DNA from: a virus
IMG/VR virus record: IMGVR_UViG_3300048587_001155
Location: 12,534 to 76,533 of that record
Direction: 5' to 3' (one strand)
Length of the DNA: 64,000 nt
Shown here piece after piece: positions 12,472 through 50,668 of this stretch. Under the pieces are notes generated by a model. The model had not been told where the DNA came from and did no database searches. It saw nothing but the letters and a program-made list of their open reading frames with translations. The translations under genes and the position numbers were made by a program. Numbering within the stretch: the first letter of the stretch is position 1; the number at the start of each line of letters is the position of its first letter.

Positions 12472-12535
12472 CCCTAATCCGGTAAGCTCCTCCCTAACCC
12501 GGTAAGCTAATCCGGTAACCTCACCCCCTAATCCG
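12472..12535. repeat. Four imperfect direct repeats, CCCTAAYCCGGTAAGCT
   Basis: Copies at 12472, 12492, 12507 (partial) and 12526 (partial) in a roughly 0.9-kb gene-poor region. Confidence 0.75.
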
Positions 12536-17706: not shown

Positions 17707-17931
17707 ATGTCCGATAAAGATTTCGTCAAATCGATCTACCCAAAGGCTGAGGCCCATCAAACTAAAGAAACCAAAGAGATCGGTCGAAGAGAAGCCAAGT
17801 GGCCTGAGCATTGGGATATTTTCGATGGCCAAAGACATCACGGGCAACAGCCGCTAGGAACAGGCACCACCGAAGCGGCCGCGTGGAAAGATGCTGCTGA
17901 CAAGATCCGCGCGACACAGCCGCGTCAATAA
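17707..17931 (+). CDS. Small hypothetical protein
   Basis: SD AGGAG; last gene of the + block. Confidence 0.65.
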   Translation: MSDKDFVKSIYPKAEAHQTKETKEIGRREAKWPEHWDIFDGQRHHGQQPLGTGTTEAAAWKDAADKIRATQPRQ

Positions 17932-18431
17932 CCCATCCCTGGAAGCATTCCCGGCCGTTGCTGCCCCATCATCCCTGGGGGCAGCATATTCCCCATTCCT
18001 GGCGGCATCATCGGCAACTGGATCCCGGGCGGCAGCTGCTGGCCAAAGGGAGATGTCGGCATGTCCATCTGCGGCGGAGCAGGCAGTTGTGATCCACCCC
18101 GCGCGATCCGTTCCGCGAGGGGATTTCTCCCCTGCATGGCGAGTGGTTGCATTCCCGTCGCGAGGAGCTGCTTGATCGAATCCGTGGGAGAGGATGGTTG
18201 CGCGCCGGGACCGAATCCCATTCCAGCGACCAGCGATTGCGGATTATTCGCCGCACCCGTCAGTCGATCGACAAGAGGATTCCCCGTGGGAGCCATCGGG
18301 TCAGGCGACCAACCCGACTTCACAGGAATCGGCGATTCCACGTAATCCGGCGTCTCACCACAACCACAGTTGTCGCTCATCGGTCCGCTTAAGGGACCGC
18401 CACTCGTCATTCCTGGACTCGGCTGCATCAT
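17925..18431 (-). CDS. Pro/Gly/Met/Gln-rich low-complexity protein
   Basis: ATGA-coupled to the 1176-aa gene; last gene of the late operon. Confidence 0.65.
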   Translation of the reverse strand: MMQPSPGMTSGGPLSGPMSDNCGCGETPDYVESPIPVKSGWSPDPMAPTGNPLVDRLTGAANNPQSLVAGMGFGPGAQPSSPTDSIKQLLATGMQPLAMQGRNPLAERIARGGSQLPAPPQMDMPTSPFGQQLPPGIQLPMMPPGMGNMLPPGMMGQQRPGMLPGMGY

Positions 18432-22344: not shown

Positions 22345-22554
22345 ATGGCTGAAGTCGATGAGCTACGTGAGGAGAATCGGAAACAGATGTTCGAGGCGAG
22401 AGAGATTCTGCAAGGACTTCAGAAACAAATCGATGAAGCGATCTGCATAATCGGAACCTTCCTCAACAACAACCCAACAACGAAGAGACTGGGCCCATCG
22501 CCATCATTCTTTACGCCCCCGGTGGGCTATGAAGAACCTGCTCAGTCGTCGTGA
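22345..22554 (+). CDS. Small coiled-coil hypothetical protein (counter-oriented moron)
   Basis: Strong SD AGGAGG precedes ATG 22345. Confidence 0.6.
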   Translation: MAEVDELREENRKQMFEAREILQGLQKQIDEAICIIGTFLNNNPTTKRLGPSPSFFTPPVGYEEPAQSS

Positions 22555-22868
22555 CGGTGCCGGTCGTACAGCAAAGGCCGCTGATAATAATCCCACTCGC
22601 GCTGTTGGTTCGCGTCATAAAGCTCAGCACCGATGTACTGAAGTTGGCGTTCCACGGCGCGATGATGGCGTTCCAGTTCTACTTGGGCATCGCTCTTTTC
22701 TGATGACAGGAAGGGAAGCCGTCTTGACCAACGAAAGGGCATGGGCGAATTGACCAGCCAATAGATGCCGATTCCGGCGACAATCACGACCACGTAAAAG
22801 GCAACGTAACGAAAGAAGCTTTTGAATGCTTCGGTGCCCTTATGATCCTCATCACTATTTTGAGACAT
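22542..22868 (-). CDS. Small single-TM membrane protein
   Basis: YVAFYVVVIVAGIGIYWLV transmembrane segment; SD AGGAGG. Confidence 0.7.
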   Translation of the reverse strand: MSQNSDEDHKGTEAFKSFFRYVAFYVVVIVAGIGIYWLVNSPMPFRWSRRLPFLSSEKSDAQVELERHHRAVERQLQYIGAELYDANQQREWDYYQRPLLYDRHRHDD

Positions 22869-22928
22869 ATGCCCTCCTAAGTGAGGAGAGCACAAGTCCG
22901 CTACTGAGTCAAGCTAGGAGGCTTGCGA

Positions 22929-37614: not shown

Positions 37615-38049
37615 TTACTTCACATGAGGGCTTCCGTACTTCTCTGTCACCATTTCGACAAGCTCTTGTCGAGGTAGAGAAGCTTTCGACGGGTCCATTC
37701 GTAGCTCATCAGAAATTGATTCGTCAATTAGATCCACTGCGAGCTTGACAGGCGGGGTCGGTTCTTTCTCCTCCGATCGGTGCTCGACAACCCCCTCGCA
37801 TTCAAGGTTTCTCTCTTCGCAGATTCGCTTGATGTGCCCCCGGTAATCGCTGGTATCGATATGGCAACCAAGCTGCTGCGAAAAGACCGTCGGCGTGTCG
37901 ATTCCACGTGTAATCGTGGCGTTTGTCTTGATCGTCGGATAATCCTTATGGGCGTGCATATGGGCGAGCCAAGGATCAAAGCCGTCAGCAACCATGCGGT
38001 CGAATTCCGCCTTTATCTCAGGCGTCCGGAAGCTGAATTCCTTGCTCAA
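37615..38049 (-). CDS. Hypothetical phage protein
   Basis: Overlaps the portal stop codon; 144 aa. Confidence 0.6.
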   Translation of the reverse strand: MSKEFSFRTPEIKAEFDRMVADGFDPWLAHMHAHKDYPTIKTNATITRGIDTPTVFSQQLGCHIDTSDYRGHIKRICEERNLECEGVVEHRSEEKEPTPPVKLAVDLIDESISDELRMDPSKASLPRQELVEMVTEKYGSPHVK

Positions 38050-39995
38050 GGTGCGTCTCCTTTCTTTTCTGCGGACGAACCGTTCGGATCATTTCCCTCT
38101 TCACCGGTGGGAGGCACGACCGGCGGGGCGGGAATAAGCTCTTGCATCGAGACGAGGTACTTGGACGGATCCAGACCTTGCGCCTTCGCCCAATCGGTGA
38201 GCAAGGCATTGATTTGATTGACCGCCTGCGGGGTGATTTGGAAGAACTGCATCAGGATCGGCAGGATCGTTTGCACAGAGGCGGTCATATTCGCTATTTG
38301 CTGCTCTTGATTCGGTTTCTTCACTGAGCCCGCTTCGATGCGGAAATCGAGTTCCCGCATGATTTGTTCGCGCGTTTGACTCCGAATCGTTTGGTTCCAT
38401 AGGAACGCTCCCGTCGTCCCGAGAACCGGCTGAATGTCCTTCTCTTCGAGGTGGTACCACGCCGCGAGGGCCTCCAAGCGGCTCACTTCGGTCATCCAAT
38501 CCTCGACCTGATTGGCCATCGCCGTGATGCGAATTTGCGAACGATCCCCCTTGAGCGAGGCCTCCTCGGCCGACCGCATCGCTCCCTGGCCATACATCAA
38601 CTCCATGAGGCCCGTACGGCGCTCGAAGAGCTGCATCATCAGATCCATGACTTTCCATAGATCCTGGTTCATCTCGGGGTGCTGAAGAAACTCAATCGAA
38701 TCCTTGATTGATTTGACCGTCCCGTCGACTTCCACCATCGTCAGGTCCGAACCGTTCTGAATGGCCGTTTTGAGGTTCTCTTCCAGCCCTGTCTTCATCG
38801 CAATAATGTCGCGCGACCGTTTGGCGATGCCGCTGACCAAGAACGAGAAGATCCAGTCAATGGCCTTCAGTTCAGAAAGAGCAGGGCGGATATGGCTCAT
38901 GGGCCACGGGGAACGGGGAACTTGATGGAAGTCGAGCAAGGCGAACGGCCATGATCCTTCCGCCCAGAAAGGGGTAGGCCAAGCCAGCCGATTGGCAATC
39001 TCCTCGACGTTCATGGTCTCCGGCTTATAGAGGTTCAAGAAGAAGTTCGAACCTTCCGTGACGACCAGATAAACGAAATCCCCGATCATCAGATCAATCG
39101 CATCCTCTTCCTCGGAGGAGTTCTCCTTTCCGACCAGCGAGGAGAGTCGGTACCCCAAACCGATCTTCGAGAAGATCTCGTAGAAGACGACGAGATCGGG
39201 GTTCGGCTTCTTACGATCCGTTTCCTTCGTGTCGGCGCTATTCGTTCCCGACATCGAACTATCGAGATCACCCTTCACTTCACCCGGAGGTAGCTCGAAT
39301 ACCTCCTCCACCTTCCACTTCGGCCAAATCCGCCGGCGAATGACGAATCCCGCATCCTGCAGGGTCTCGGTATCGGCATCAATCAAGAGATTGTCCACGG
39401 TGTCGAATGTGCTCGACACCATTCGCTGTTCCGAGTCCGGCCACGTGACGAGCTCCGTCCAAAGCACGCCACGTCCCTTGATCAACGCCTCGTCGACCGC
39501 AAGGCGCGCATGCGTCTTGAGTCCGCCTCCGATCATTTCGTTGGGAGTGTAGTTGAGATAGGCTTCCATCAGCCGCGCACGAACGCTTGCCACCGCTTCG
39601 CGCATCGTTCTCTCTTGCTGAACAATCTGGGCGTACTCAGGGCCATAGAGCAGCGCGATCGAATCGATCAAATCGGGGGATGGCCTAAGCGTGCACCGTC
39701 GGTTCGGATTCGCATGATACAGGTAGGGGCCGATCACACTTTTCACTTCGAACACTTTGTTGACGTTCCCGCGGAACATGGGCGTGGGGACGTTGGCATC
39801 CTCAGGAGCGAAGAACGAAGACACCTTCTTGCGAAAATCGCTATTGAAGATCTCGCCGGCGTTCCCCGTGTAAAAGTCCATGGCCGTTTTCGCGTCACTA
39901 TCGAACGGCTCTTTCGCCTCCTTTGCCTTCTTGACGCGCATTTGCCATCGCTTCACCAGTTCTTTGAAATTCGTCGGCTTACCCACGGGAGTCAC
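38046..39995 (-). CDS. Portal protein
   Basis: 649 aa after TerL; VNKV, EALIKGRG, G....MYG...RSAEEA, IEAGS. Confidence 0.8.
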   Translation of the reverse strand: MTPVGKPTNFKELVKRWQMRVKKAKEAKEPFDSDAKTAMDFYTGNAGEIFNSDFRKKVSSFFAPEDANVPTPMFRGNVNKVFEVKSVIGPYLYHANPNRRCTLRPSPDLIDSIALLYGPEYAQIVQQERTMREAVASVRARLMEAYLNYTPNEMIGGGLKTHARLAVDEALIKGRGVLWTELVTWPDSEQRMVSSTFDTVDNLLIDADTETLQDAGFVIRRRIWPKWKVEEVFELPPGEVKGDLDSSMSGTNSADTKETDRKKPNPDLVVFYEIFSKIGLGYRLSSLVGKENSSEEEDAIDLMIGDFVYLVVTEGSNFFLNLYKPETMNVEEIANRLAWPTPFWAEGSWPFALLDFHQVPRSPWPMSHIRPALSELKAIDWIFSFLVSGIAKRSRDIIAMKTGLEENLKTAIQNGSDLTMVEVDGTVKSIKDSIEFLQHPEMNQDLWKVMDLMMQLFERRTGLMELMYGQGAMRSAEEASLKGDRSQIRITAMANQVEDWMTEVSRLEALAAWYHLEEKDIQPVLGTTGAFLWNQTIRSQTREQIMRELDFRIEAGSVKKPNQEQQIANMTASVQTILPILMQFFQITPQAVNQINALLTDWAKAQGLDPSKYLVSMQELIPAPPVVPPTGEEGNDPNGSSAEKKGDAP

Positions 39996-40385: not shown

Positions 40386-42224
40386 TTATCTCAGATCCGG
40401 CCGTTTGTTGGGCGAAAGATCCACACCTCCTTTCTTTCGCGTTTTAGCGGCACGTTTCGCAAGTCTTGCCAGTATCGGATCGGAAAGATTATCCCGTCTG
40501 TGGCGGGGCCGAACGTACCTTGGTTGCCTTGCCGCGAAGTACTCGGCGCAGGTCACCAGGTGATTATCTTTGTCGACTCGCTTATCGGTCGGCTGACCAT
40601 CGGCCCGTTTCTGATAAACCTGTTTCGACATCTCCCAAACGAAGTTTTTGCACTTGTCCTTGTGGACCCGGAGGACGGGAGTATCCGTCTGTGGCCTCAT
40701 CTCGAGCCATTGCCGGAACGCTTCTTCGCGTCCCTTGATATCCCGGCTGCCGGGCCGAAATCCGTAACCGGTCGCGATCGCACGAAGCCCCTTCTTCCGA
40801 AACGCCCGCTCATACGACTCCTCGACCGATATCCCGGAACCGATTTGAGTTTGCCGGCCCATCGACATATCGATGATGAATTCCTGAAAAGTCTGATTCT
40901 CCGACTTTCGTTTCACCAAGTCAGCGAACTTGTCAGCCGACGCGCGCTCGAGATAAACCTCGTCGTAGAAGTGGACTTCGAACCCGAACTCCAGAGGAGG
41001 AATCGCGGCAAACAATCCAGCGGCACGCTGAACGCCAGGATCCACGATGAGGAAGCGACACCAGTCCGAGGGAATGGGAAAAGCATCGATAATGTGTCCA
41101 GGGACCGAAGGCATGCTCGGGCATTTGATTTCAGGAATGAATTCGGGATAGACCCGGAGGGCTCGGCGCCGCGATTTTCCCTCGTACCTGACCTCCCGTT
41201 CCGAAGGACTCAACTTCTTCCAGAATTCTTCTTTCGCTTGCTTGCTGATCGAAGGGTTGTCGTCGATGTGAAGAAAGATTTCGACACACGAATCATCGGA
41301 CGGATTGGCCGCACGATCGCGCATCTCATCGAGAACTTCAGTAGCCGTCTGCGGAGTGGCCGACCACTGGAAGAAACCGCCCACTCGATCGACACGTCCA
41401 CGCACCGCGACTTCCGGGTACCACTCCTCGTTGACGATTTCTTCGTCGAACCAAACGAGATCGTATTGATCACCCTGAGGAATATCGCCTTCCGATGATG
41501 CGAAGAAGATTTCCCAATCGTTGCGGAGTCGGATGCTTGCGGGTTGTCGGTCCCGTTTGTTGTACCAACTGATGTCCTTGATCATTCGAGGCGGGATGAG
41601 GGGAGGGGCAAGCTTCCATTCATCCTCGCGGCTCATATCAGAGCGATTACTGAACTTCACGGCCCGCCACTGCCCGGTTTCCAGATCGCGAATGATGCTG
41701 AACGCACCGGCGCGTCCGAGTTTCTTCCAGATGATGCGGCCGATATGAGGCCAATCCTTGCCGACGACGATCGCGGTTCCGCCGAACTCCGGGGTTCCGA
41801 GATATTTTCTCTGACTTGTTCCGCCATGGAGACCCTTGATCGTGCGAGGATGCTGACCGAGAACAACCTTTGCAAAGTTGGCCGTAGCGACCGTCGTCTT
41901 ACCCGAACGGTTCGAACCGATGATGGCGATCTCGGAAGCCTTCGATTTGAACACTTCCCGTTGGCCGGGATTGATCGGGGTGAAGAGTCGCCAACCCTCG
42001 ATACGGCGAGCGTTGAACTCTTCCATGATGAGCTGCTCGGTAGGAGTCAGCGTCGCATTCGGTGGAAGGTGTTGTCTCTCTTCGTCGAGCTTCTTGAGAT
42101 AGTTGGTTGCCTCTTCCGAAGCCTTGGGGGCTCGCTGACGGAAGGCCTCCATGAGTTGTTCAAGTTCAGCCGGATTCGTCTTCGGCTGTTTCTTCGGCCG
42201 ACCCGGTTTCTTCTTCGCTGCCAT
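40386..42224 (-). CDS. terL: Terminase large subunit
   Basis: Walker A GSNRSGKT, Walker B LVWFDEE, SATP, DNP, nuclease IVDPG and DKDNH. Confidence 0.92.
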   Translation of the reverse strand: MAAKKKPGRPKKQPKTNPAELEQLMEAFRQRAPKASEEATNYLKKLDEERQHLPPNATLTPTEQLIMEEFNARRIEGWRLFTPINPGQREVFKSKASEIAIIGSNRSGKTTVATANFAKVVLGQHPRTIKGLHGGTSQRKYLGTPEFGGTAIVVGKDWPHIGRIIWKKLGRAGAFSIIRDLETGQWRAVKFSNRSDMSREDEWKLAPPLIPPRMIKDISWYNKRDRQPASIRLRNDWEIFFASSEGDIPQGDQYDLVWFDEEIVNEEWYPEVAVRGRVDRVGGFFQWSATPQTATEVLDEMRDRAANPSDDSCVEIFLHIDDNPSISKQAKEEFWKKLSPSEREVRYEGKSRRRALRVYPEFIPEIKCPSMPSVPGHIIDAFPIPSDWCRFLIVDPGVQRAAGLFAAIPPLEFGFEVHFYDEVYLERASADKFADLVKRKSENQTFQEFIIDMSMGRQTQIGSGISVEESYERAFRKKGLRAIATGYGFRPGSRDIKGREEAFRQWLEMRPQTDTPVLRVHKDKCKNFVWEMSKQVYQKRADGQPTDKRVDKDNHLVTCAEYFAARQPRYVRPRHRRDNLSDPILARLAKRAAKTRKKGGVDLSPNKRPDLR

Positions 42225-43278: not shown

Positions 43279-45657
43279 TCAACCAACGATTGGCCCAATA
43301 ATTCCCTTGTCGCTTCCTCCTCGACCGGAAGACATGACGTCGATCGGCCCAAGCGATGGTTTGCCGGGCCGCGCCATTCCGAAGAAGTCGTACTCGGGTG
43401 CCTTGCACATACCGAGGGACGTGAGCACATCCGAGAATGGATTCGCATTCCCCACCTTGGCCACGGGGGAATCAGATGCGATCGAGGTACGAAGAGGAAA
43501 CGAGGCGTTCGCCGCTTGCGTGATACCAGCCAACGAGTCGGCTCCATAAGCGAGTCCGAATACGTCCGAGTTGGCCACTGACAGATCGATGAAGCCCGTT
43601 GCTTGATCGAACCCACGCACCAATGGGAAGCCGCCAGGATTCGCGCCCACCGCGCCGTAGATTCCGATGTACCGCAAATAATTCGAGCTGTTGACCGGCA
43701 AGTTATTCGCCGAAAATGCTCCCGTCCCGTAACAGACTTTCATCCCCACGGAATAGCCGGCGAGAAGCGCATCAGGGTTCGAGATGATGCAATTTCCCAT
43801 CGGAATACCCCACGCGCCCGCCTCGGCAAAATTCGCGTTCGCGATGGCCACATATCCCGTGGAGTCTCCTCCTCGCACGAGGATTTCACAGTTCATCAGA
43901 CGAGGTTTAATCGTCGTCGACGTGGTCTGATTGAAAATGCAGAACTGAACGAGGTTGCTGACAGTCCCCGCTCCCTCGCAGTCGATTTCAAAGATCGAGT
44001 TGAGCCATATCGCGTTCGTGCTTCCCGCCCACCAATAAAGCGTGGTGTATCCAGGGCGAATGTAATGCCTCGTGTTGATGAACATCGTGCGCGAGTAGGC
44101 TAGCATCGCCGGCTGCTGAGCGACACTTCGGTATCGTGGAGATTGCCAATCGATGATGATGACCTTGTACGTGGTCGGGTCATTCTCCGTTCCGGCGAGA
44201 AAAGCATTCTGCCCTCTCAATTCATCCGAAAAGGTCCATGCCTCACAAGCGACCGTCGCGTTCGGATATTGATCCCGCTCATCGATGATTCGATTGCTGA
44301 TGTTGAGATAGAGAGCAACCGGAAAGCACGGCGTTCCGCCAGTCCCGTTACTCGCTCCACTCGGGAAACCGGTATGTCCGTAGAACGCGGGAACCTTGTC
44401 GACCTGGCCGGGGCCTGTAAATGTGTTGGCCGCGTACAAGGTCGTATTCGTGGAATCGACCGGCAAGCATCCGAATCGAATCACATTCCCTACGAAATAG
44501 GTCTCGTGATTTCCTTGGGCAGAGAATGAATTGAGACAGCTCGCGCCACCGGAAGGAGAGGTATAGCCGACGACACAGTTCTCGACGAAGTGGACACCCC
44601 CTTGATGATTTCCCGTCGCGATGTCGTCCGCCTCGTGAGAGATCATGTGACGACCGCCATAGTACGACTCACAGTTCGCGATATAGGCGACATCCTCTGT
44701 GCCGCCGCCGTTTCGTATGCCGCTGGCGTTCTGATAGCTGATCGACTGACAACCGAAGCCCTCGAAGCAAAGGCCCTCGACCCATAACCGACTCGCACCG
44801 TTCTTGATTCGGAGACCATCGGGAGCGCTGTTATTGCTTCCCACGCCGGGCGTAGCCTCGAAACAGGTTCCCGCGCTGATGGCATTGGGATCCGCTACCG
44901 TGCGAAGGAGGTTCCCGAAATTGACGTTCACGACACCATTGGAGTCGCAATAGAACGAGAGATCCTGAGCTTCGATCTTGGCGTAAGCCGTCGCATCCTG
45001 ACCAGCGGAGACGCTCGTACCAGAGCAATAAGTGAACGGATCGCACCAGGTGATGATGTTGGCGAAGCCGGCGAGCGTAGCGGAACGATCGAACCGGAAC
45101 CAACCGATCGTGGTGGCGTTAGTGGGATTGAGAACCGTGGCACTGGCCGTCAACGATACTTGCCGGCGATTCGTGGCTCCTCCAGGAGTCGTTACGGTCA
45201 CACCGTTCAGCCATTGAATGGTGAAGGCTGAAATGATCGGCTTGACCATCTTCGTGTCGGAACCTGCAACGTTAGGCCCATAACTTCCGAAATGAAGCGC
45301 ATCGGTCGACACTTCCAGTCCAGAAGCGTCCCGAATCATCGTCCCTCTCTTGAACAGGAATGCGGTATTCGTCACGGGCGTCGCGAAACCAGCCTGCCCC
45401 CCAATGGTGGTACCGTCGCCGGTCAATGCCTTGCGAACGTTCGTGAGCGTCTTCCACGGGGTGGCCTGGCTTTGAGCCTGCGTTTTCGTGTTGTTGTCAT
45501 CGCCATTGACCGGGTCGATGTAAAACGTGGTCGCTCTCTTAAAGACGCATTGGCGCCTCCGACGATCCCGAAGCGTCTGAGTCCACGGCAGGAACTTCGA
45601 AGAGGTTTGCGCGGGCATCGCCCCAGCAACGGCAGAAAACGTGCTCACGTTCGGCAT
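43279..45657 (-). CDS. Parallel beta-helix protein (tailspike / depolymerase-like)
   Basis: FYIDPVNGDDNN...PWKTL, FLFKRG, repeated I.NC strands, C-terminal D.FG..R....LG. Confidence 0.7.
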   Translation of the reverse strand: MPNVSTFSAVAGAMPAQTSSKFLPWTQTLRDRRRRQCVFKRATTFYIDPVNGDDNNTKTQAQSQATPWKTLTNVRKALTGDGTTIGGQAGFATPVTNTAFLFKRGTMIRDASGLEVSTDALHFGSYGPNVAGSDTKMVKPIISAFTIQWLNGVTVTTPGGATNRRQVSLTASATVLNPTNATTIGWFRFDRSATLAGFANIITWCDPFTYCSGTSVSAGQDATAYAKIEAQDLSFYCDSNGVVNVNFGNLLRTVADPNAISAGTCFEATPGVGSNNSAPDGLRIKNGASRLWVEGLCFEGFGCQSISYQNASGIRNGGGTEDVAYIANCESYYGGRHMISHEADDIATGNHQGGVHFVENCVVGYTSPSGGASCLNSFSAQGNHETYFVGNVIRFGCLPVDSTNTTLYAANTFTGPGQVDKVPAFYGHTGFPSGASNGTGGTPCFPVALYLNISNRIIDERDQYPNATVACEAWTFSDELRGQNAFLAGTENDPTTYKVIIIDWQSPRYRSVAQQPAMLAYSRTMFINTRHYIRPGYTTLYWWAGSTNAIWLNSIFEIDCEGAGTVSNLVQFCIFNQTTSTTIKPRLMNCEILVRGGDSTGYVAIANANFAEAGAWGIPMGNCIISNPDALLAGYSVGMKVCYGTGAFSANNLPVNSSNYLRYIGIYGAVGANPGGFPLVRGFDQATGFIDLSVANSDVFGLAYGADSLAGITQAANASFPLRTSIASDSPVAKVGNANPFSDVLTSLGMCKAPEYDFFGMARPGKPSLGPIDVMSSGRGGSDKGIIGPIVG

Positions 45658-45734: not shown

Positions 45735-45772
45735 AAGAAATGAAAGAGCCCGTCCCCCACGAGGAGACGGGC
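45735..45772 (-). terminator. Rho-independent terminator closing the protease/cytochrome operon
   Basis: GCCCGTC/GACGGGC stem followed on the minus strand by TCTTTCATTTCTT. Confidence 0.6.
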
Positions 45773-45849
45773 CATATCAAGTTTTATGTGCGGTACGGGA
45801 GTCACTCGACGGAAACGAGACGCCGAGCGACTCCCTATCAGGGTTTGAC

Positions 45850-46218
45850 TTATCGCGTGACGATCCGCTGAGTCGTTCTCGATCGATTCCCCAGAAAGGG
45901 CAGGCGGGAATTCTGAGTCGTCGTCGTGATCTTTTGGAACCTCGGCGCCGCGACTGCCTGGATCGGTGCCACCGCCGTCGAATAGGCTACATTCGCTTGG
46001 GCAACGATCGGCTGGAATTGCACCGGCGCCGCGACATAAGACGCAACGACAGGCTGCGCGATGACCGCCTGTGCGTATACCGGTTGTGCGATGACCGGCT
46101 GAGCCACAACGGCCTGTTGCACAATGGCTTGCCCTCCGCATCCCGCGAAAGATCGGCCCGGCACGATTGCCACAAGGCCGAGAACCAAAAGAGCAAAAAG
46201 CAGATGAAACGTCCTCAT
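45850..46218 (-). CDS. Small secreted protein with AQPV repeats
   Basis: Signal peptide MRTFHLLFALLVLGLVAIVPGRSFA; ATGA overlap with the upstream gene. Confidence 0.7.
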   Translation of the reverse strand: MRTFHLLFALLVLGLVAIVPGRSFAGCGGQAIVQQAVVAQPVIAQPVYAQAVIAQPVVASYVAAPVQFQPIVAQANVAYSTAVAPIQAVAAPRFQKITTTTQNSRLPFLGNRSRTTQRIVTR

Positions 46219-47009
46219 CGGAGAGGCTCCTTAAATCGAGTGTCGACGATCCCACGCAAATCACCTGACTTGCTCGGATGGGAGTCGTCGAGAATCTTCA
46301 GGCCGGGGGGAATTCGGAGGCGATAAGGAAGCGAGTTCGACTCACGCGCGGGCATCTCGCCGATGGCCGATCCGAAATCGACGAGTCGCCCGTTTTCATC
46401 GACTCTGCCAAATCGCCATAAGTTCGTCGAAGATTGCGATCCAGGCATAGGAGGGGCCGGCGTTGGCTTGGCTCCGGGAATCGCTTTCAGGGCCTCGAGT
46501 AATGCCTTCGGATCTTGCCCCATCCACTGGTCGAACAGAATAGATTCCTCATCCGACAGAGGCTGATCCGGAGGCATGCTTCCCATGCGAACCCGAGTGG
46601 CGATTAAGACCTTCGTCTTGACGTCGTACATCCCTTCCTGATCGAGACGAAGCCCCCCTTTGGCAGAATCACCACTGTGGCAGCTCGAGCACTTCGTCGT
46701 CATCAATTCCTGAATCTGCTCATCGAGAGGAGTCGATCCGATCCGCGGAGCCCCGCCGGTTGTTCCTGGCTGGCAGTTCGCCAAGGCCTGCTCGATTCGG
46801 GCGAGCCGCTCGTTCATCTCGTCCACCTTTCGGCCGGCGAGCAGATTCTCCCTTTCCTGGCCAACGACGTACGTCCAGAATGGATCCGGTACGGGGATGG
46901 TCACCGCACTGACGTAGGGTGTCACCGCTTGCACCTGCTGAACCGCACAAGCCTGTTGTCCGCACTGCGACGGAAGAAACGTGACCAAAAGGGTCGCTAA
47001 TAAAATCAT
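46215..47009 (-). CDS. Exported planctomycete-type cytochrome c (PSCyt1-like)
   Basis: Hydrophobic N-terminus; KCSSCHSGDSAKGGLRLD ... GSMPP.QPLS.EE...F.QW (CxxCH plus distal Met). Confidence 0.85.
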   Translation of the reverse strand: MILLATLLVTFLPSQCGQQACAVQQVQAVTPYVSAVTIPVPDPFWTYVVGQERENLLAGRKVDEMNERLARIEQALANCQPGTTGGAPRIGSTPLDEQIQELMTTKCSSCHSGDSAKGGLRLDQEGMYDVKTKVLIATRVRMGSMPPDQPLSDEESILFDQWMGQDPKALLEALKAIPGAKPTPAPPMPGSQSSTNLWRFGRVDENGRLVDFGSAIGEMPARESNSLPYRLRIPPGLKILDDSHPSKSGDLRGIVDTRFKEPLR

Positions 47010-48298
47010 GGTGCTACTGCCTCCACTTGATTGACGATCGCGATGGCATCCCCCAGCAGATCTTCCCAAGCCTGCCTACTGATTCCCTGACGCGCGAGCA
47101 GCGCCGCGAACGTCGCCAGGAGAATCCTCTTCCGCCGATACGGTGCGGATAGCTTTCCTAGATCCTCCACGGGAATACCAAGTTCAGTGGCCGCGATCTC
47201 TGGCGTTATCGGTTGATCCAGATATTGCACTGTCATCCGTCGAAATTCATGGGCGACCACTTCGGGCTTGAGGTTGCAGGCCTTCGATACCGCCTCGCCG
47301 AACCTTGCTTGATCCTTCGAAATCGTGTCCGCCAGATTGGTGAGGAATCGATCTTCAATTCGCTGCTGATTGTTCCGATCGTAGGTCTCGAGCTTAAGCG
47401 ATTTGCTGTTGATCATCGAAGAGACGTCATCCGTGAACGCGTTGATGCCGAGTCCGTGGCATCCGACACAGCTCCTCGCCGAGTAGATTTGCTTGTCCCT
47501 CGCCGTCGTTTCGTAGTCTTGGGCGATCGCGGCCGGGACGACTTGTACCGCGTTACCTTGACCGTCGGCGATGTAATACGCTTGCAAACCATTCGCGAGC
47601 GTCCAGATGAATTCCCCCGCGTCATGCTTCGATACCTCGAGGTTATCGATGATGTTGTCCTCGTCGAAATCGCTCAGATGATCCTGTGATTCCCACCAAT
47701 AGCCCGTGAGGGACGGGTACCGGATAAGCCGACGGTTGTGCAGCGCGACGGGCGACCGGAACTTCGAACCGTAGATATCCGCCTTCAGAGCAACCGCGTC
47801 GTCGATTCGAATTCGATAGGTCGATTGCACGTCGGCTAGTTTCCCGCCGAGCTTCAGAAACGAGTCATAGAACGGCTTGTCCGAGGAATACGTCAGGAAT
47901 CCCTCGAGACGAAGAACCGGGCTTACGGTCTGGAACGGATCACGCGTCGTCTTCGACAACGACCGCCAGACGGGAACGAATTCGTATCCGCGCTTTTGGG
48001 CGAGATTCTCCCACGCCGCGATATCCCATTCGTAATCCCGCAGATCGACGCGAAGGAGTGTATCGCTCACCTGAAATGGTCTGATGATCCTCGGCCGACG
48101 TGACAACGAGTTCACCCAGAACGAAGCGACCTCTCGCGCCGTTGCCCGTTGATCAGCTGGTATGGCGTAGAGGGAGAGGTACCGAATGAACGGTCGATCA
48201 CTCGGGGAGATTTGGAGCACGTCCACGAGGGACGCGTGGAGTTCACTTGCCGGGCTGGGGAGGCCTGCAAGCATCACGATCGAGAGGATGGCTATCAC
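47006..48298 (-). CDS. Exported protein with one CxxCH heme-binding motif
   Basis: Signal-like N-terminus; RYLSL, NSLS, RVDLRDY.W, HDAGE.I..L.NGLQ.Y, SCVGCH. Confidence 0.75.
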   Translation of the reverse strand: MIAILSIVMLAGLPSPASELHASLVDVLQISPSDRPFIRYLSLYAIPADQRATAREVASFWVNSLSRRPRIIRPFQVSDTLLRVDLRDYEWDIAAWENLAQKRGYEFVPVWRSLSKTTRDPFQTVSPVLRLEGFLTYSSDKPFYDSFLKLGGKLADVQSTYRIRIDDAVALKADIYGSKFRSPVALHNRRLIRYPSLTGYWWESQDHLSDFDEDNIIDNLEVSKHDAGEFIWTLANGLQAYYIADGQGNAVQVVPAAIAQDYETTARDKQIYSARSCVGCHGLGINAFTDDVSSMINSKSLKLETYDRNNQQRIEDRFLTNLADTISKDQARFGEAVSKACNLKPEVVAHEFRRMTVQYLDQPITPEIAATELGIPVEDLGKLSAPYRRKRILLATFAALLARQGISRQAWEDLLGDAIAIVNQVEAVAP

Positions 48299-48312
48299 AG
48301 TTCCCCCATGGA

Positions 48313-49137
48313 CTACAGCGAGAACGTCTTCCCGTTGACGAGCAGGCTTCCTACTCCGACGCCTGACGGAATGTTGATGGTGATTTGACCCGTAGGCGTT
48401 GGACCGACCGGAGGGACTTTCGACGAAGGGCCATAAAGCGCCACCGCATCGGCGATATCCGCCGCGAGAGGCTGATAGACGTTGGCCGAGTAGATCGGAT
48501 TCATCAGCGCCTTCGCTTGATTCGCGGCAGTATGCCGGAACCCGATCGCATGGCCAATCTCGTGCGTGGCAACCGCCAAGAGGAGAATCGCGCCGTTCGC
48601 CGTGGTGACTCCGAACGTCTCATCCAGGTCGTAGACCTGATTGAGTTGAGTGTCCGGGCGTGCTCCGTCCGGCAGTTCACTCCATGCGAGAACCCCCATC
48701 GGTCCGTCGAATCCAGCTCGCTTTCCTTTCCCGGTCGTCATGATGACGTTGGCACCGGCCGCGCCCATGACTTCTATCGGCCTGAGTCCGCAGACCGCGC
48801 CCCATGCCGCCCACGCCTGTCGATACACCTGGCGAGCTTGGTCCGAAGTAAGACCGTTGGGAGTCGCCTGAATGTAATACTTGACGTCCATCATCGGCCA
48901 TTTGCAGCCAGCCGTGGTGATCGTCTGAATGTCCGGAAGGCCGCAACCGCACGTCATTCGCTTCAGAAAGGCACGCTGCGTAATGCTCCCGGCATTCCCG
49001 TCCTCAGTGAGCCCTTGGTAATGCTGAAAGGATTTGACCGCCTCTTCTAGCTCGCCATCTTTCTTCTTTTCGAAGAAGTCTTTAGCGAGATGACCGAGGG
49101 AGATCAGTCCATTGATCAATTGCAATTCCGTGAGCAT
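48313..49137 (-). CDS. Matrixin (M10A, MMP-like) zinc metalloprotease with pro-domain
   Basis: AVKSFQ...GL..DG....T (PGBD-like pro-domain), CGLPD cysteine switch, FDGPMGVLA, HEIGHAIGFRH, ALMNP Met-turn, D....LYG. Confidence 0.92.
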   Translation of the reverse strand: MLTELQLINGLISLGHLAKDFFEKKKDGELEEAVKSFQHYQGLTEDGNAGSITQRAFLKRMTCGCGLPDIQTITTAGCKWPMMDVKYYIQATPNGLTSDQARQVYRQAWAAWGAVCGLRPIEVMGAAGANVIMTTGKGKRAGFDGPMGVLAWSELPDGARPDTQLNQVYDLDETFGVTTANGAILLLAVATHEIGHAIGFRHTAANQAKALMNPIYSANVYQPLAADIADAVALYGPSSKVPPVGPTPTGQITINIPSGVGVGSLLVNGKTFSL

Positions 49138-49186
49138 CGCAAACCCTTTCAGCTATATCCCTGTTTCGTAACGCCGTGAACGATGA

Positions 49187-49654
49187 TCACTTCTTGATGA
49201 GAAGCGGAATCAAGGTCGGACCGTACTGGACGATGAAGGTGAAGATCTTGTCCCAAGGAATATCCTTGAGAACCTTGAGGGCCTCCCGGCGGTCGACAAT
49301 CTCTGCCTGAAAGACAGGTCGAGCTTCATCGGACGTGTGGTTATCCACGAACGTCTGCATGGCTTCGACGAACTCAGGAATGAGCACCGTCGGCTGAGCA
49401 ATGAGGAATTGAACGTCCGGAGTGGCGATCGGTCCCGAGGGAGATCCATCAGCCGGCGGTTCCCCGACGAATAAATTGAGGCCGTAACCCCACAGAATGT
49501 GCAGATTCTTCAAGATCAAGGGGATGTTGTCGGTGATCTTCCCTTCCCGGAAGATCGCGAGCAGCGCCAAAGCCTCATTGATCGGAGGCTTGGTCGGATA
49601 CGGATAGTTGGTCGGTTCCGTGGTCGTCAATTCTTCGGTCTTATCCTGGGTCAT
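49187..49654 (-). CDS. Hypothetical membrane-associated protein
   Basis: YP..P...E...R...I...GY motif; amphipathic C-terminus IPWDKIFTFIVQYGPTLIPLL. Confidence 0.65.
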   Translation of the reverse strand: MTQDKTEELTTTEPTNYPYPTKPPINEALALLAIFREGKITDNIPLILKNLHILWGYGLNLFVGEPPADGSPSGPIATPDVQFLIAQPTVLIPEFVEAMQTFVDNHTSDEARPVFQAEIVDRREALKVLKDIPWDKIFTFIVQYGPTLIPLLIKK

Positions 49655-49672
49655 CGAACAGTCCTTAAATGG

Positions 49673-50014
49673 TCAAGACGAAGACTTCGGCAGAGATGTC
49701 TGAAGCTTCGCGATGACGGAACTCACTTCTCGGAAAGCAACCGTGTTGTCGGTGATCACCTGCTGTTGCGCGATCACCATATTCTCAAGCTTCGTCCGTA
49801 CCTCGTTCTCGAGCAGATCGATCCGTTTCCCCATCCGCTCCTCACGAGCCACCGATTGATTGGTGAAGTCGTCGAGCTGTTTCGTCGAACGAGCTATCTG
49901 ATCCTCCTCTCGTTTGGTCGCTCGATCGTGGTACACCTTGTTCTGCAGGAAATACGCGACGGCGATAAAGCCCAGAACGCCGTATTGCATGAGCACATCG
50001 GATCCACCATCCAC
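49673..50014 (-). CDS. Holin-like protein (N-terminal TM plus coiled coil)
   Basis: QYGVLGFIAVAYFL TM segment followed by heptad repeats; SD AAGGAG. Confidence 0.55.
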   Translation of the reverse strand: MDGGSDVLMQYGVLGFIAVAYFLQNKVYHDRATKREEDQIARSTKQLDDFTNQSVAREERMGKRIDLLENEVRTKLENMVIAQQQVITDNTVAFREVSSVIAKLQTSLPKSSS

Positions 50015-50017
50015 GCG

Positions 50018-50344
50018 TTATTCTCCTTCGAGCTTGAGAATGGCCCGATCGACGTGGTCCTTTAGCCAACGCCAAACAGGCAGAACAGGAACAGTCGATG
50101 GATCAGCACCGGAGAGAAGGGCTTCGAGGGTGGAGCATCCGACTTCATCAGATGCGGGTGAAGTATCTTCACCAGGCTGGCTGGGGTCCGTCAGGATGAG
50201 CTTTTGCAGATAACCGATGGATACCCAGCCGCAATGACAGAAGAGCGAACGGCTGGCAAGAATGGAGTTATCCCGAACGCGATTGATGACAACGCCCATC
50301 TCGATCGATGGAGCTTCGCTCGGGTAATTGAGATCTTGTTGCAT
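50018..50344 (-). CDS. Hypothetical protein, probable paralog of 49187-49654
   Basis: NYPSEAP..E.......R...I.......W..IGY; SD GGAGG. Confidence 0.6.
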   Translation of the reverse strand: MQQDLNYPSEAPSIEMGVVINRVRDNSILASRSLFCHCGWVSIGYLQKLILTDPSQPGEDTSPASDEVGCSTLEALLSGADPSTVPVLPVWRWLKDHVDRAILKLEGE

Positions 50345-50413
50345 TCCGCCGCCTCCGGTCATTGGCGACGGCAGAATGCCAAACGAAAGTTTCAAAGGTC
50401 AAGGAGGGCCAAG

Positions 50414-50668
50414 TTAGAAGAGAGTCCCGTCAGGATCTTTCGCTTTCTTCCCTGTAAACAGATCGCGAATCTTTGACGCGCGTTTGATGTAGGTTGCTAA
50501 TCTCTCTTCACGCTTTTCCGCCGCGTCCGCATTCGTTCTCGATCGTCCGGCTCCCGACCTCACTTCGTGCCCAAATACTGCTGTTTCCTCCCGATGAATC
50601 GATGCAGGAAGATTCCCCGCCCATTTGTTTGCCGACGTTGAACGATCAACACGCACAACCATCGCCAT
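50414..50668 (-). CDS. Small hypothetical protein
   Basis: SD AAGGA; 84 aa. Confidence 0.6.
   Translation of the reverse strand: MAMVVRVDRSTSANKWAGNLPASIHREETAVFGHEVRSGAGRSRTNADAAEKREERLATYIKRASKIRDLFTGKKAKDPDGTLF

Follow-up and report, generated by a model that had tools for sequence, protein, structure and literature searches.

A conserved phage cassette in the lysis position, with a predicted matrixin zymogen and two putative periplasmic heme proteins

We analyzed a 64,000-nucleotide stretch of viral DNA (here, the window), which covers positions 12,534 to 76,533 of IMG/VR record IMGVR_UViG_3300048587_001155, a 76,533-bp provirus with a CheckV completeness of 100%. The window contains a cassette of eight open reading frames (ORFs), all on the minus strand and read from 50668 to 45850, in which the gene for a matrixin, a protease of the matrix metalloproteinase (MMP) type, is followed by genes for two exported CxxCH proteins (c430 and c264) and for a secreted repeat protein (AQPV). 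The intergenic gaps along the run are, in order, 18, 3, 18, 49, and 14 nt, and ATGA stop/start overlaps join c430 to c264 (47009/47006) and c264 to AQPV (46218/46215). An intrinsic terminator on the same strand (45747 to 45773; 12-bp stem with 8 G-C pairs, 3-nt loop, and T-rich tail) closes the cassette. The original prediction, made from the sequence alone, had described a co-oriented, partly ATGA-coupled run ending in a terminator and lying upstream of the packaging genes, and this description held in each respect.

Past the terminator and on the same strand, the order is a 792-aa ORFan, the large terminase gene terL (40386 to 42224; phrog_2, E = 6e-14, and Terminase_6N), the portal gene (38046 to 39995), the major head protein gene, and the tail genes, with terL 3.6 kb downstream of the cassette. 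Upstream of the cassette, at ∼51.3 to 51.4 kb, transcription diverges into helix-turn-helix, primase, and integrase genes. Because upstream transcription diverges and the virion genes follow downstream on the same strand, the cassette heads the leftward late unit, which is the position of the lysis genes in lambda-like phages.

A matrixin profile search of IMG/VR yielded 97 relatives, of which 80 were fetched, and one additional full-length relative was found in a Planctomycetota metagenome-assembled genome (MAG). In nine of these loci a c430 homologue lay directly after the matrixin gene, and a c264 homologue came next (flagged by phmmer in five of the nine, and by eye and alignment in all nine). 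A c430 scan of metagenomes then gave another three loci that have this gene order. The order matrixin-c430-c264 was thus found in 12 further loci (L064, L065, L067, L070, L073, L077, L079, L080, L081, L176, L178, and L179), drawn from IMG/VR, the Planctomycetota MAG prophage, and metagenomes. A repeat protein followed c264 in at least 7 of the 12, or at least 8 of 13 with the window included, and the conserved core therefore comprises four genes: the pro-matrixin, c430, c264, and a Q/V-rich repeat protein. The proteins are only 22 to 50% identical between loci, which indicates that the arrangement is old and has been maintained. As in the window, terL lies on the same strand 1 to 4 kb downstream of the cassette in five loci (L064, L073, L079, L080, and L081), and the terL genes downstream of the cassettes fall in different PHROG families. 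In L179, the cassette is followed by a tailspike-like gene and then the portal gene. Single-protein scans of viral contigs with the matrixin or c430 found nothing, and a scan with alignment A4 retrieved metagenome loci but no viral relatives.

The remaining matrixin loci had other surroundings. About 70 of the viral matrixin loci represent one clade of ∼200-kb phages, in which the matrixin occurs without heme genes, among conserved ORFans. Within this clade (L001 to L063 and others; e.g., L001:10001-10759 and L007), the block of ORFans is strongly syntenic and lies near a gene for a 1,471-aa RNA polymerase beta/beta' fusion; two of the genomes, of ∼205 kb, are complete by CheckV (100%), and one has direct terminal repeats. 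Three larger phages with the full cassette order (L065, L067, and L070) have a different neighborhood, characterized by DUF5662, a trypsin-like protease, and an RNA ligase. In these, the DUF5662 protein precedes the cassette, and in L067 a secreted trypsin-like serine protease (L067:1862-2551; Trypsin_2, E = 2.8e-12) is encoded immediately upstream of the matrixin.

The matrixin gene of the window (48313 to 49137, minus strand) encodes a 274-aa protein. Residues 79 to 236 matched Peptidase_M10 (PF00413) with an E value of 1.5e-18 (67.6 bits; cutoff, 24) over the full profile (positions 1 to 159), and residues 11 to 56 matched PG_binding_1 (E = 2.4e-6). The closest relatives in the PDB were MMP-11, MMP-9, and karilysin (E = 2e-16 to 1e-14), in line with the earlier assignment of this gene to the matrixins. 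The zinc site (HEIGHAIGFRH) and Met-turn (ALMNPIY) are both present, and CGCGLPD aligns on PRCGVPD, the cysteine switch of MMP-9. C65, H192, E193, H196, and H202 are invariant across 15 homologues (alignment A1). Toward the C terminus, a Pro-rich linker leads to a short beta element. Among the phage homologues, the zinc motif was found in all 84 and the switch pattern, mostly as RCGLPD, in 80, while an N-terminal hydrophobic signal was found in none of the 84. From these features, the matrixin is predicted to be a complete MMP-type zymogen without a signal peptide. Lacking an export signal, it would have to remain cytoplasmic until the inner membrane is breached or the enzyme is otherwise released. 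In the three larger phages, the matrixins (L065:9866-11071, L067:2553-3803, and L070:9929-11095) carry an extra FN3-like insert of ∼100 aa before the C-terminal beta element.

The next two genes encode c430 (47006 to 48298, minus strand; 430 aa) and c264 (46215 to 47009, minus strand; 264 aa from the ATG at 47009). Each protein has one CxxCH and an N-terminal signal-like segment, as expected from the earlier description of two exported CxxCH proteins. For c264, a 284-aa form from a TTG start is less likely, since the ATG form gives a signal-like leader and the ATGA overlap. The c430 CxxCH (C277, C280, and H281) is invariant. The central domain of c430 (approximately residues 140 to 345) resembles cytochrome c'-beta/P460, which supplied the top five matches in two independent searches; neither c430 model had a significant Foldseek match in the PDB. 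Alignment A6 of the c430 domain contains no invariant or nearly invariant Lys that could form the heme-Lys cross-link of P460. The c264 protein opens with a Q/V-rich stretch, which a helical, Pro-rich linker connects to a short domain of the class-I cytochrome c type, with the CxxCH at residues 107 to 111 and an axial Met-Pro 34 residues later (residues 145 and 146). Both the CxxCH and M145-P146 are invariant in 13 loci, all of which also have an N-terminal hydrophobic leader, and this fits c264 as a His/Met class-I cytochrome c. Its Pfam matches were below the cutoff (Cytochrome_CBB3, E = 2.3e-4 and 21.9 bits against 27; PSCyt1, E = 9e-4 and 20.2 bits against 22), while the c264 homologue of L065 scored 24.2 against the PSCyt1 cutoff of 22 and fused cellular forms scored 29 to 45 bits. 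Given their signal peptides and invariant heme-c attachment motifs, and for c264 the invariant axial Met as well, we assign c430 and c264 as predicted periplasmic c-type heme proteins. Phage-encoded c-type cytochromes are uncommon.

The c430 family has 2,906 representatives at 50% identity (E ≤ 1e-3) and no Pfam model. The nearest ESM Atlas clusters of c430 (436 to 523 aa) are mostly from Uroviricota, while PSCyt1-bearing forms of the family (∼600 aa) are bacterial (Planctomycetota and Myxococcota). Among 301 Planctomycetota genomes, the c430 domain was found in nine and only in fusions: C-terminal to PSCyt1 in exported proteins of ∼600 aa, after a Ser/Thr kinase and PSCyt1 in the same protein, or together with TPR repeats. 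Further cellular proteins in which PSCyt1 is fused to a c430 domain are P0035, P0037, P0038, and P0040. By sequence comparison, then, the phage c430 and c264 are the putative split and reordered equivalent of a cellular two-heme extracytoplasmic module, and the tie of that module to kinases suggests sensing. Three Planctomycetota loci (L160:58-2829, L162, and L167) encode proteins of ∼920 to 940 aa with an N-terminal Ser/Thr protein kinase, PSCyt1, and a c430-like heme domain; this layout resembles a heme-based extracytoplasmic sensor kinase and appears to be undescribed. The c430 proteins of L065, L067, and L070 have C-terminal extensions of ∼120 aa, for which a resemblance to SH3 was considered and dropped because Pfam gave it no support, and these extensions are not homologous to those of the matrixins in the same three phages.

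The last gene of the cassette (45850 to 46218, minus strand) encodes the 122-aa AQPV protein, which consists of a signal peptide followed by AQPV-type repeats rich in Q, V, P, and A, in keeping with the secreted AQPV protein originally described. The same slot is filled by signal-peptide proteins with Q/V/R-rich repeats in L073, L064, L080, L067, L070, L081, and L178. An ESM Atlas search with AQPV returned low scores only, and its model was poor. The lipobox-like FAGC of AQPV is not conserved in the positional counterparts, and we therefore rejected its reading as an o-spanin. No Rz/Rz1-type spanin pair was recognizable, AQPV being the sole ORF between 45700 and 51400 with a lipobox-like motif, 3.5 kb from g113.

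Upstream of the matrixin are four small genes, all on the minus strand. The first, g84 (50414 to 50668; 84 aa), encodes a small basic protein with no Pfam or PHROG family, and the second, g125 (50018 to 50395; 125 aa), a small soluble protein with no family match, the start of which is uncertain (alternative ATGs at 50362 and 50344). The third, g113 (49673 to 50014; 113 aa), has one N-terminal hydrophobic segment and a charged, helical, coiled-coil-like region and is a candidate holin or i-spanin-like protein; the fourth, g155 (49187 to 49654; 155 aa), is soluble and ends in KK, its C-terminal tail being hydrophobic or amphipathic. A paralogous, membrane-associated pair had been proposed here, and this was not confirmed, as g84, g125, and g155 have no transmembrane (TM) segment and no BLAST similarity to one another. 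Nor was the proposed holin-like gene confirmed. The g113 protein has a moderately hydrophobic N terminus (best 19-residue Kyte-Doolittle mean of 1.49, at residue 5) and a charged helical remainder, but Pfam and PHROG searches gave no holin family, only function-unknown PHROGs at E ≥ 1.5e-3. Proteins with the g113 architecture, but without significant sequence similarity, are encoded directly upstream of the matrixin in L176, L179, and L080, and small multi-TM holin-like ORFs lie between the cassette and the terminase in L064, L073, and L080. In L081, the small ORF before the matrixin has a C-terminal tail that by eye resembles that of g155. Elsewhere in the window, between tail-region genes, a 117-aa ORF (22542 to 22895, minus strand) has one strongly hydrophobic TM segment (hydropathy, 2.28).

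A relative of the window with ∼97% identity, in pond metagenome run X1, retained the whole cassette. At window position 46929 it has a 9-nt in-frame insertion, which falls in the Q/V-rich N-terminal part of c264. Its homology to the window fades past ∼51.1 kb, at the divergent regulatory region. Fragments from sequencing runs span cassette and virion genes alike (these are contigs only, from which expression cannot be ranked). The 792-aa ORFan between the cassette terminator and the terminase genes (43279 to 45657, minus strand) may be a tailspike or depolymerase gene placed before terL, since the equivalent slot in L179 holds a tailspike PHROG match. In the MAG prophage locus, the host flank (L081:4520-6700, minus strand) encodes a 726-aa exported protein with many ∼16-aa Cys-rich repeats (CYTVCKPVWETKTKEI type), reminiscent of the YTV proteins of planctomycete cell walls.

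The absence of a lysozyme, amidase, or M23 motif from the window, part of the original prediction, was borne out and extends to the complete 76.5-kb provirus, where a canonical endolysin had been named as the finding that would count against a novel lysis system. Pfam and PHROG searches of every sizeable window ORF gave no peptidoglycan hydrolase family, and six-frame searches of the whole provirus gave no Phage_lysozyme, SLT, Amidase_2, Amidase_3, GH25, M15_4, or above-threshold M23; a GH19 search carries no weight, as its control was silent. The tested endolysin families were likewise absent from nine other cassette records (28 to 84% complete) and from two complete matrixin-bearing jumbo-phage genomes. 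Subthreshold M23 matches in the jumbo phages were discarded because they fall inside RNA polymerase beta/beta' genes. PDB sequence searches of virion-region proteins of 674, 168, 1,176, and 792 aa gave nothing useful. The 168-aa protein (17925 to 18431, minus strand), encoded at the distal end of the late gene block, is of endolysin size, but it was set aside as a low-complexity protein rich in P, G, and M with no PDB or Pfam homologue. No family match was obtained for more than half of the ORFs in the provirus, and with most of the proteins being ORFans, absence at the level of profile searches does not equal functional absence. Compared with what is expected of an endolysin, the cassette offers a signal-less enzyme that is encoded upstream of terL and two genes from a TM protein; its sole catalytic domain is M10, which is not a known peptidoglycan hydrolase family.

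Taken as a whole, this is a lysis-position cassette with unprecedented components, and full-text literature searches yielded no account of cytochromes combined with a phage matrixin. We are highly confident that it is a conserved functional phage module. Our best explanation, which we advance tentatively, is that the module acts on the envelope at exit. That the matrixin replaces an endolysin outright is a good deal more doubtful, and that the heme proteins trigger the cysteine switch seems to us unlikely. Equally speculative is the boldest form of the idea, a new lysis or lysis-timing class in which an MMP-type zymogen serves as the endolysin and its latch is opened in the periplasm by a phage two-heme unit; a c'-beta-type sensor heme and a cytochrome c would then gate envelope breakdown by the redox or gas state of the periplasm, and the secreted Q/V-rich protein would be a cofactor, substrate, or scaffold. 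The original prediction had proposed an undescribed protease- and redox-based system for exit or envelope remodeling. Its core, a conserved and undescribed phage module in the lysis position, has stood; the exit role and the redox part are still what we infer.

If the cassette does act at exit, the matrixin would be made in the cytoplasm and kept latent by its Cys-Zn latch. The membrane would be permeabilized by g113 (or its positional analogue) or by another holin, and the lesion would give the enzyme access to the periplasm, as for canonical endolysins. In this oxidizing compartment the latch could be lost by oxidation or autoproteolysis, and the unlatched matrixin might cut peptide links in the envelope, namely, the proteins that tether or form the planctomycete wall and possibly murein peptides, with the PG_binding_1-fold domain helping to direct it to the wall. 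The two heme proteins, which would be periplasmic from the start, probably do not attack the wall themselves but sense or relay the redox or gas state and thereby gate or time the protease. Such gating or timing would be their most natural link to the protease, as the pair is more like a sensor or relay than like an activity that degrades the wall.

Several observations weigh against a role in exit. The match to PG_binding_1 is no proof of wall binding because the normal MMP prodomain has the same fold, and we know of no M10 enzyme that cleaves peptidoglycan. The heme pair, homologous to a planctomycete module attached to kinases, looks more sensor-like than lytic. The g113 protein is weakly hydrophobic and lies outside every holin family searched, and the holin could instead be the 117-aa ORF with the strong TM segment, outside the cassette; similarly, any ORFan of the provirus could be an unrecognized lysin. 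The cassette ends in its own strong terminator and so may be transcribed apart from the virion genes. It is not beside the terminase in the three larger phages, the ∼70 jumbo-phage loci carry the matrixin alone in an uninformative neighborhood, and in L177 c430 stands alone with no matrixin upstream.

Some of the same observations would be explained if the cassette had nothing to do with lysis and were an independently transcribed accessory (moron or lysogenic-conversion) module, equipping the lysogen or infected cell with a periplasmic heme sensor or detoxifier (e.g., of NO or for redox) and with a protease that remodels matrix or nutrients. We consider this possible, if on balance rather unlikely. 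The separate terminator fits it, as does the homology of the heme pair to extracytoplasmic modules on Ser/Thr kinases and TPR proteins in planctomycetes; structural relatives of the c'-beta/P460 type are gas-binding or N-oxide enzymes; the matrixin and heme genes are each found without the other; and the metzincin/TIMP pair of a Listeria phage remnant is run from a cI/cro-type switch and not as a lysis gene (PMC8235301). Against this, the lack of a signal peptide in all 84 matrixin homologues is awkward for a secreted protease, the slot directly upstream of the terminase recurs across different terminase types, the cassette genes show tight coupling to those of small membrane proteins, and the stand-alone c430 clusters are mostly viral. 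Nor was a canonical lysin found that would make a lysis role needless.

It is less probable, in our view, that the cassette is a supplementary lysis factor, with an unrecognized ORFan endolysin degrading murein while the cassette removes a nonmurein layer (outer membrane tethers or a proteinaceous wall), in the manner of spanins, LysB, or disruptin. The large share of provirus ORFs without a family match and the absence of a recognizable Rz/Rz1-type pair speak for this reading. M10 enzymes cleave proteins, not murein, and the very large Cys-rich, wall-type repeat protein in the host flank of L081 fits protein-rich host envelopes. Yet neither Pfam, PHROGs, six-frame searches, nor PDB sequence searches gave an endolysin candidate in the provirus, and the two complete jumbo genomes lack the endolysin families as well.

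A virion-packaged or ejected entry enzyme, with which the matrixin would pierce the envelope while its neighbors are unrelated late genes, is improbable. An enzyme with no signal peptide and a wall-binding-type domain would also suit a virion-associated lysin, the jumbo-phage gene lies in a conserved block near the RNA polymerase beta/beta' gene, and what comes after the cassette in L179, and possibly in the window, is a tailspike-like gene. However, the matrixin is small (∼270 aa) and fused to no structural protein, it lies outside the head/tail gene block of the window, and the heme proteins to which it is tightly coupled are exported ones that cannot enter particles from the cytoplasm. Finally, although PSCyt1-type cytochromes are typical of planctomycete hosts, a single capture of host DNA, raised at the outset as a possibility should these genes never co-occur elsewhere, or a juxtaposition by chance is excluded by the gene order shared with 12 further independent loci of such low mutual identity, and the c430 domain was found in only 9 of 301 planctomycete genomes, in each case fused.

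Planctomycetes have a thin murein layer and protein-rich envelopes, and to our knowledge the route by which tailed phages exit from them has not been described. The cassette is a concrete, conserved, and clonable candidate for this step. It also defines three unannotated families, which are the signal-less phage MMP zymogens (at least 84 loci), the c430 heme family, and the Q/V-rich secreted partner. If the role in exit is correct, a protease-based and possibly redox-gated effector would join such noncanonical lysis solutions as LysB and disruptin, and this would account for the canonical endolysins not found in these phages. If the cassette is instead an accessory module, it would be a new phage-borne periplasmic heme module, and its kinase-linked relatives hint at what PSCyt1 proteins sense.

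Several known systems bear comparison with the cassette. The phage matrixin shares with the MMPs and karilysin (MEROPS M10A) a prodomain of the PG_binding_1 fold, the cysteine switch, HExxHxxGxxH, and the Met-turn. Unlike these, it is phage encoded and has no signal peptide and no hemopexin domain, and instead it has the Pro-rich linker, the short C-terminal beta element, and, in some members, the FN3-like insert. The central domain of c430, all top structural matches of which belong to the cytochrome c'-beta/P460 family, appears to share with that family a beta-sheet followed by a helix bearing the single CxxCH; it differs from P460 by the absence of the conserved cross-link Lys, and c430 adds flanking domains of ∼130 aa (N-terminal) and ∼90 aa (helical, C-terminal). 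With the planctomycete PSCyt1 proteins, c264 shares a putative PSCyt1/class-I cytochrome c domain, and in the cellular proteins PSCyt1 is fused directly to a c430-like domain. The phages, by contrast, encode the units as two genes and in the opposite order, c264 has the added Q/V-rich N-terminal region, and DUF1549/DUF1553, the usual partners of PSCyt1, are absent.

The jumbo-phage endolysins KZ144 and EL188 reportedly have an N-terminal PG_binding_1 and a C-terminal catalytic domain. The matrixin shares with this type a PG_binding_1-type N terminus ahead of the catalytic domain, the lack of a signal peptide, and abundance in ∼200-kb phages, whereas catalysis falls to a protease fold latched by a cysteine switch in the matrixin and to a lytic transglycosylase in these endolysins. 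Nearest to our cassette in placement and logic is the lambda-type lysis cassette, which is situated and oriented in the same way with respect to the terL, portal, and capsid genes and likewise combines a signal-less enzyme that needs a membrane lesion with adjoining small membrane proteins and translational coupling. Here, however, the enzyme is an M10 metzincin zymogen rather than a muramidase, transglycosylase, amidase, or LAS peptidase; the unit further includes c430 and c264, both exported c-type heme proteins, and the secreted Q/V-rich protein, and a holin family or Rz/Rz1 pair is not recognizable; and the terminator comes after the cassette, not before it. The nearest described metzincin analogue is the pair formed by the metzincin Mtz and the TIMP-like lipoprotein Tim of a Listeria monocytogenes phage remnant, the expression of which alters the cell wall, sensitizes it to phage lysins, and raises phage-mediated lysis (PMC8235301). 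Likened by description and not by sequence, both systems pair a phage-derived metzincin with a small exported partner. Mtz differs in being secreted, in its Gram-positive host and TIMP-like partner, and in the lack of heme proteins, and whereas Mtz/Tim is under the cI/cro switch, the cassette described here lies upstream of the terminase.

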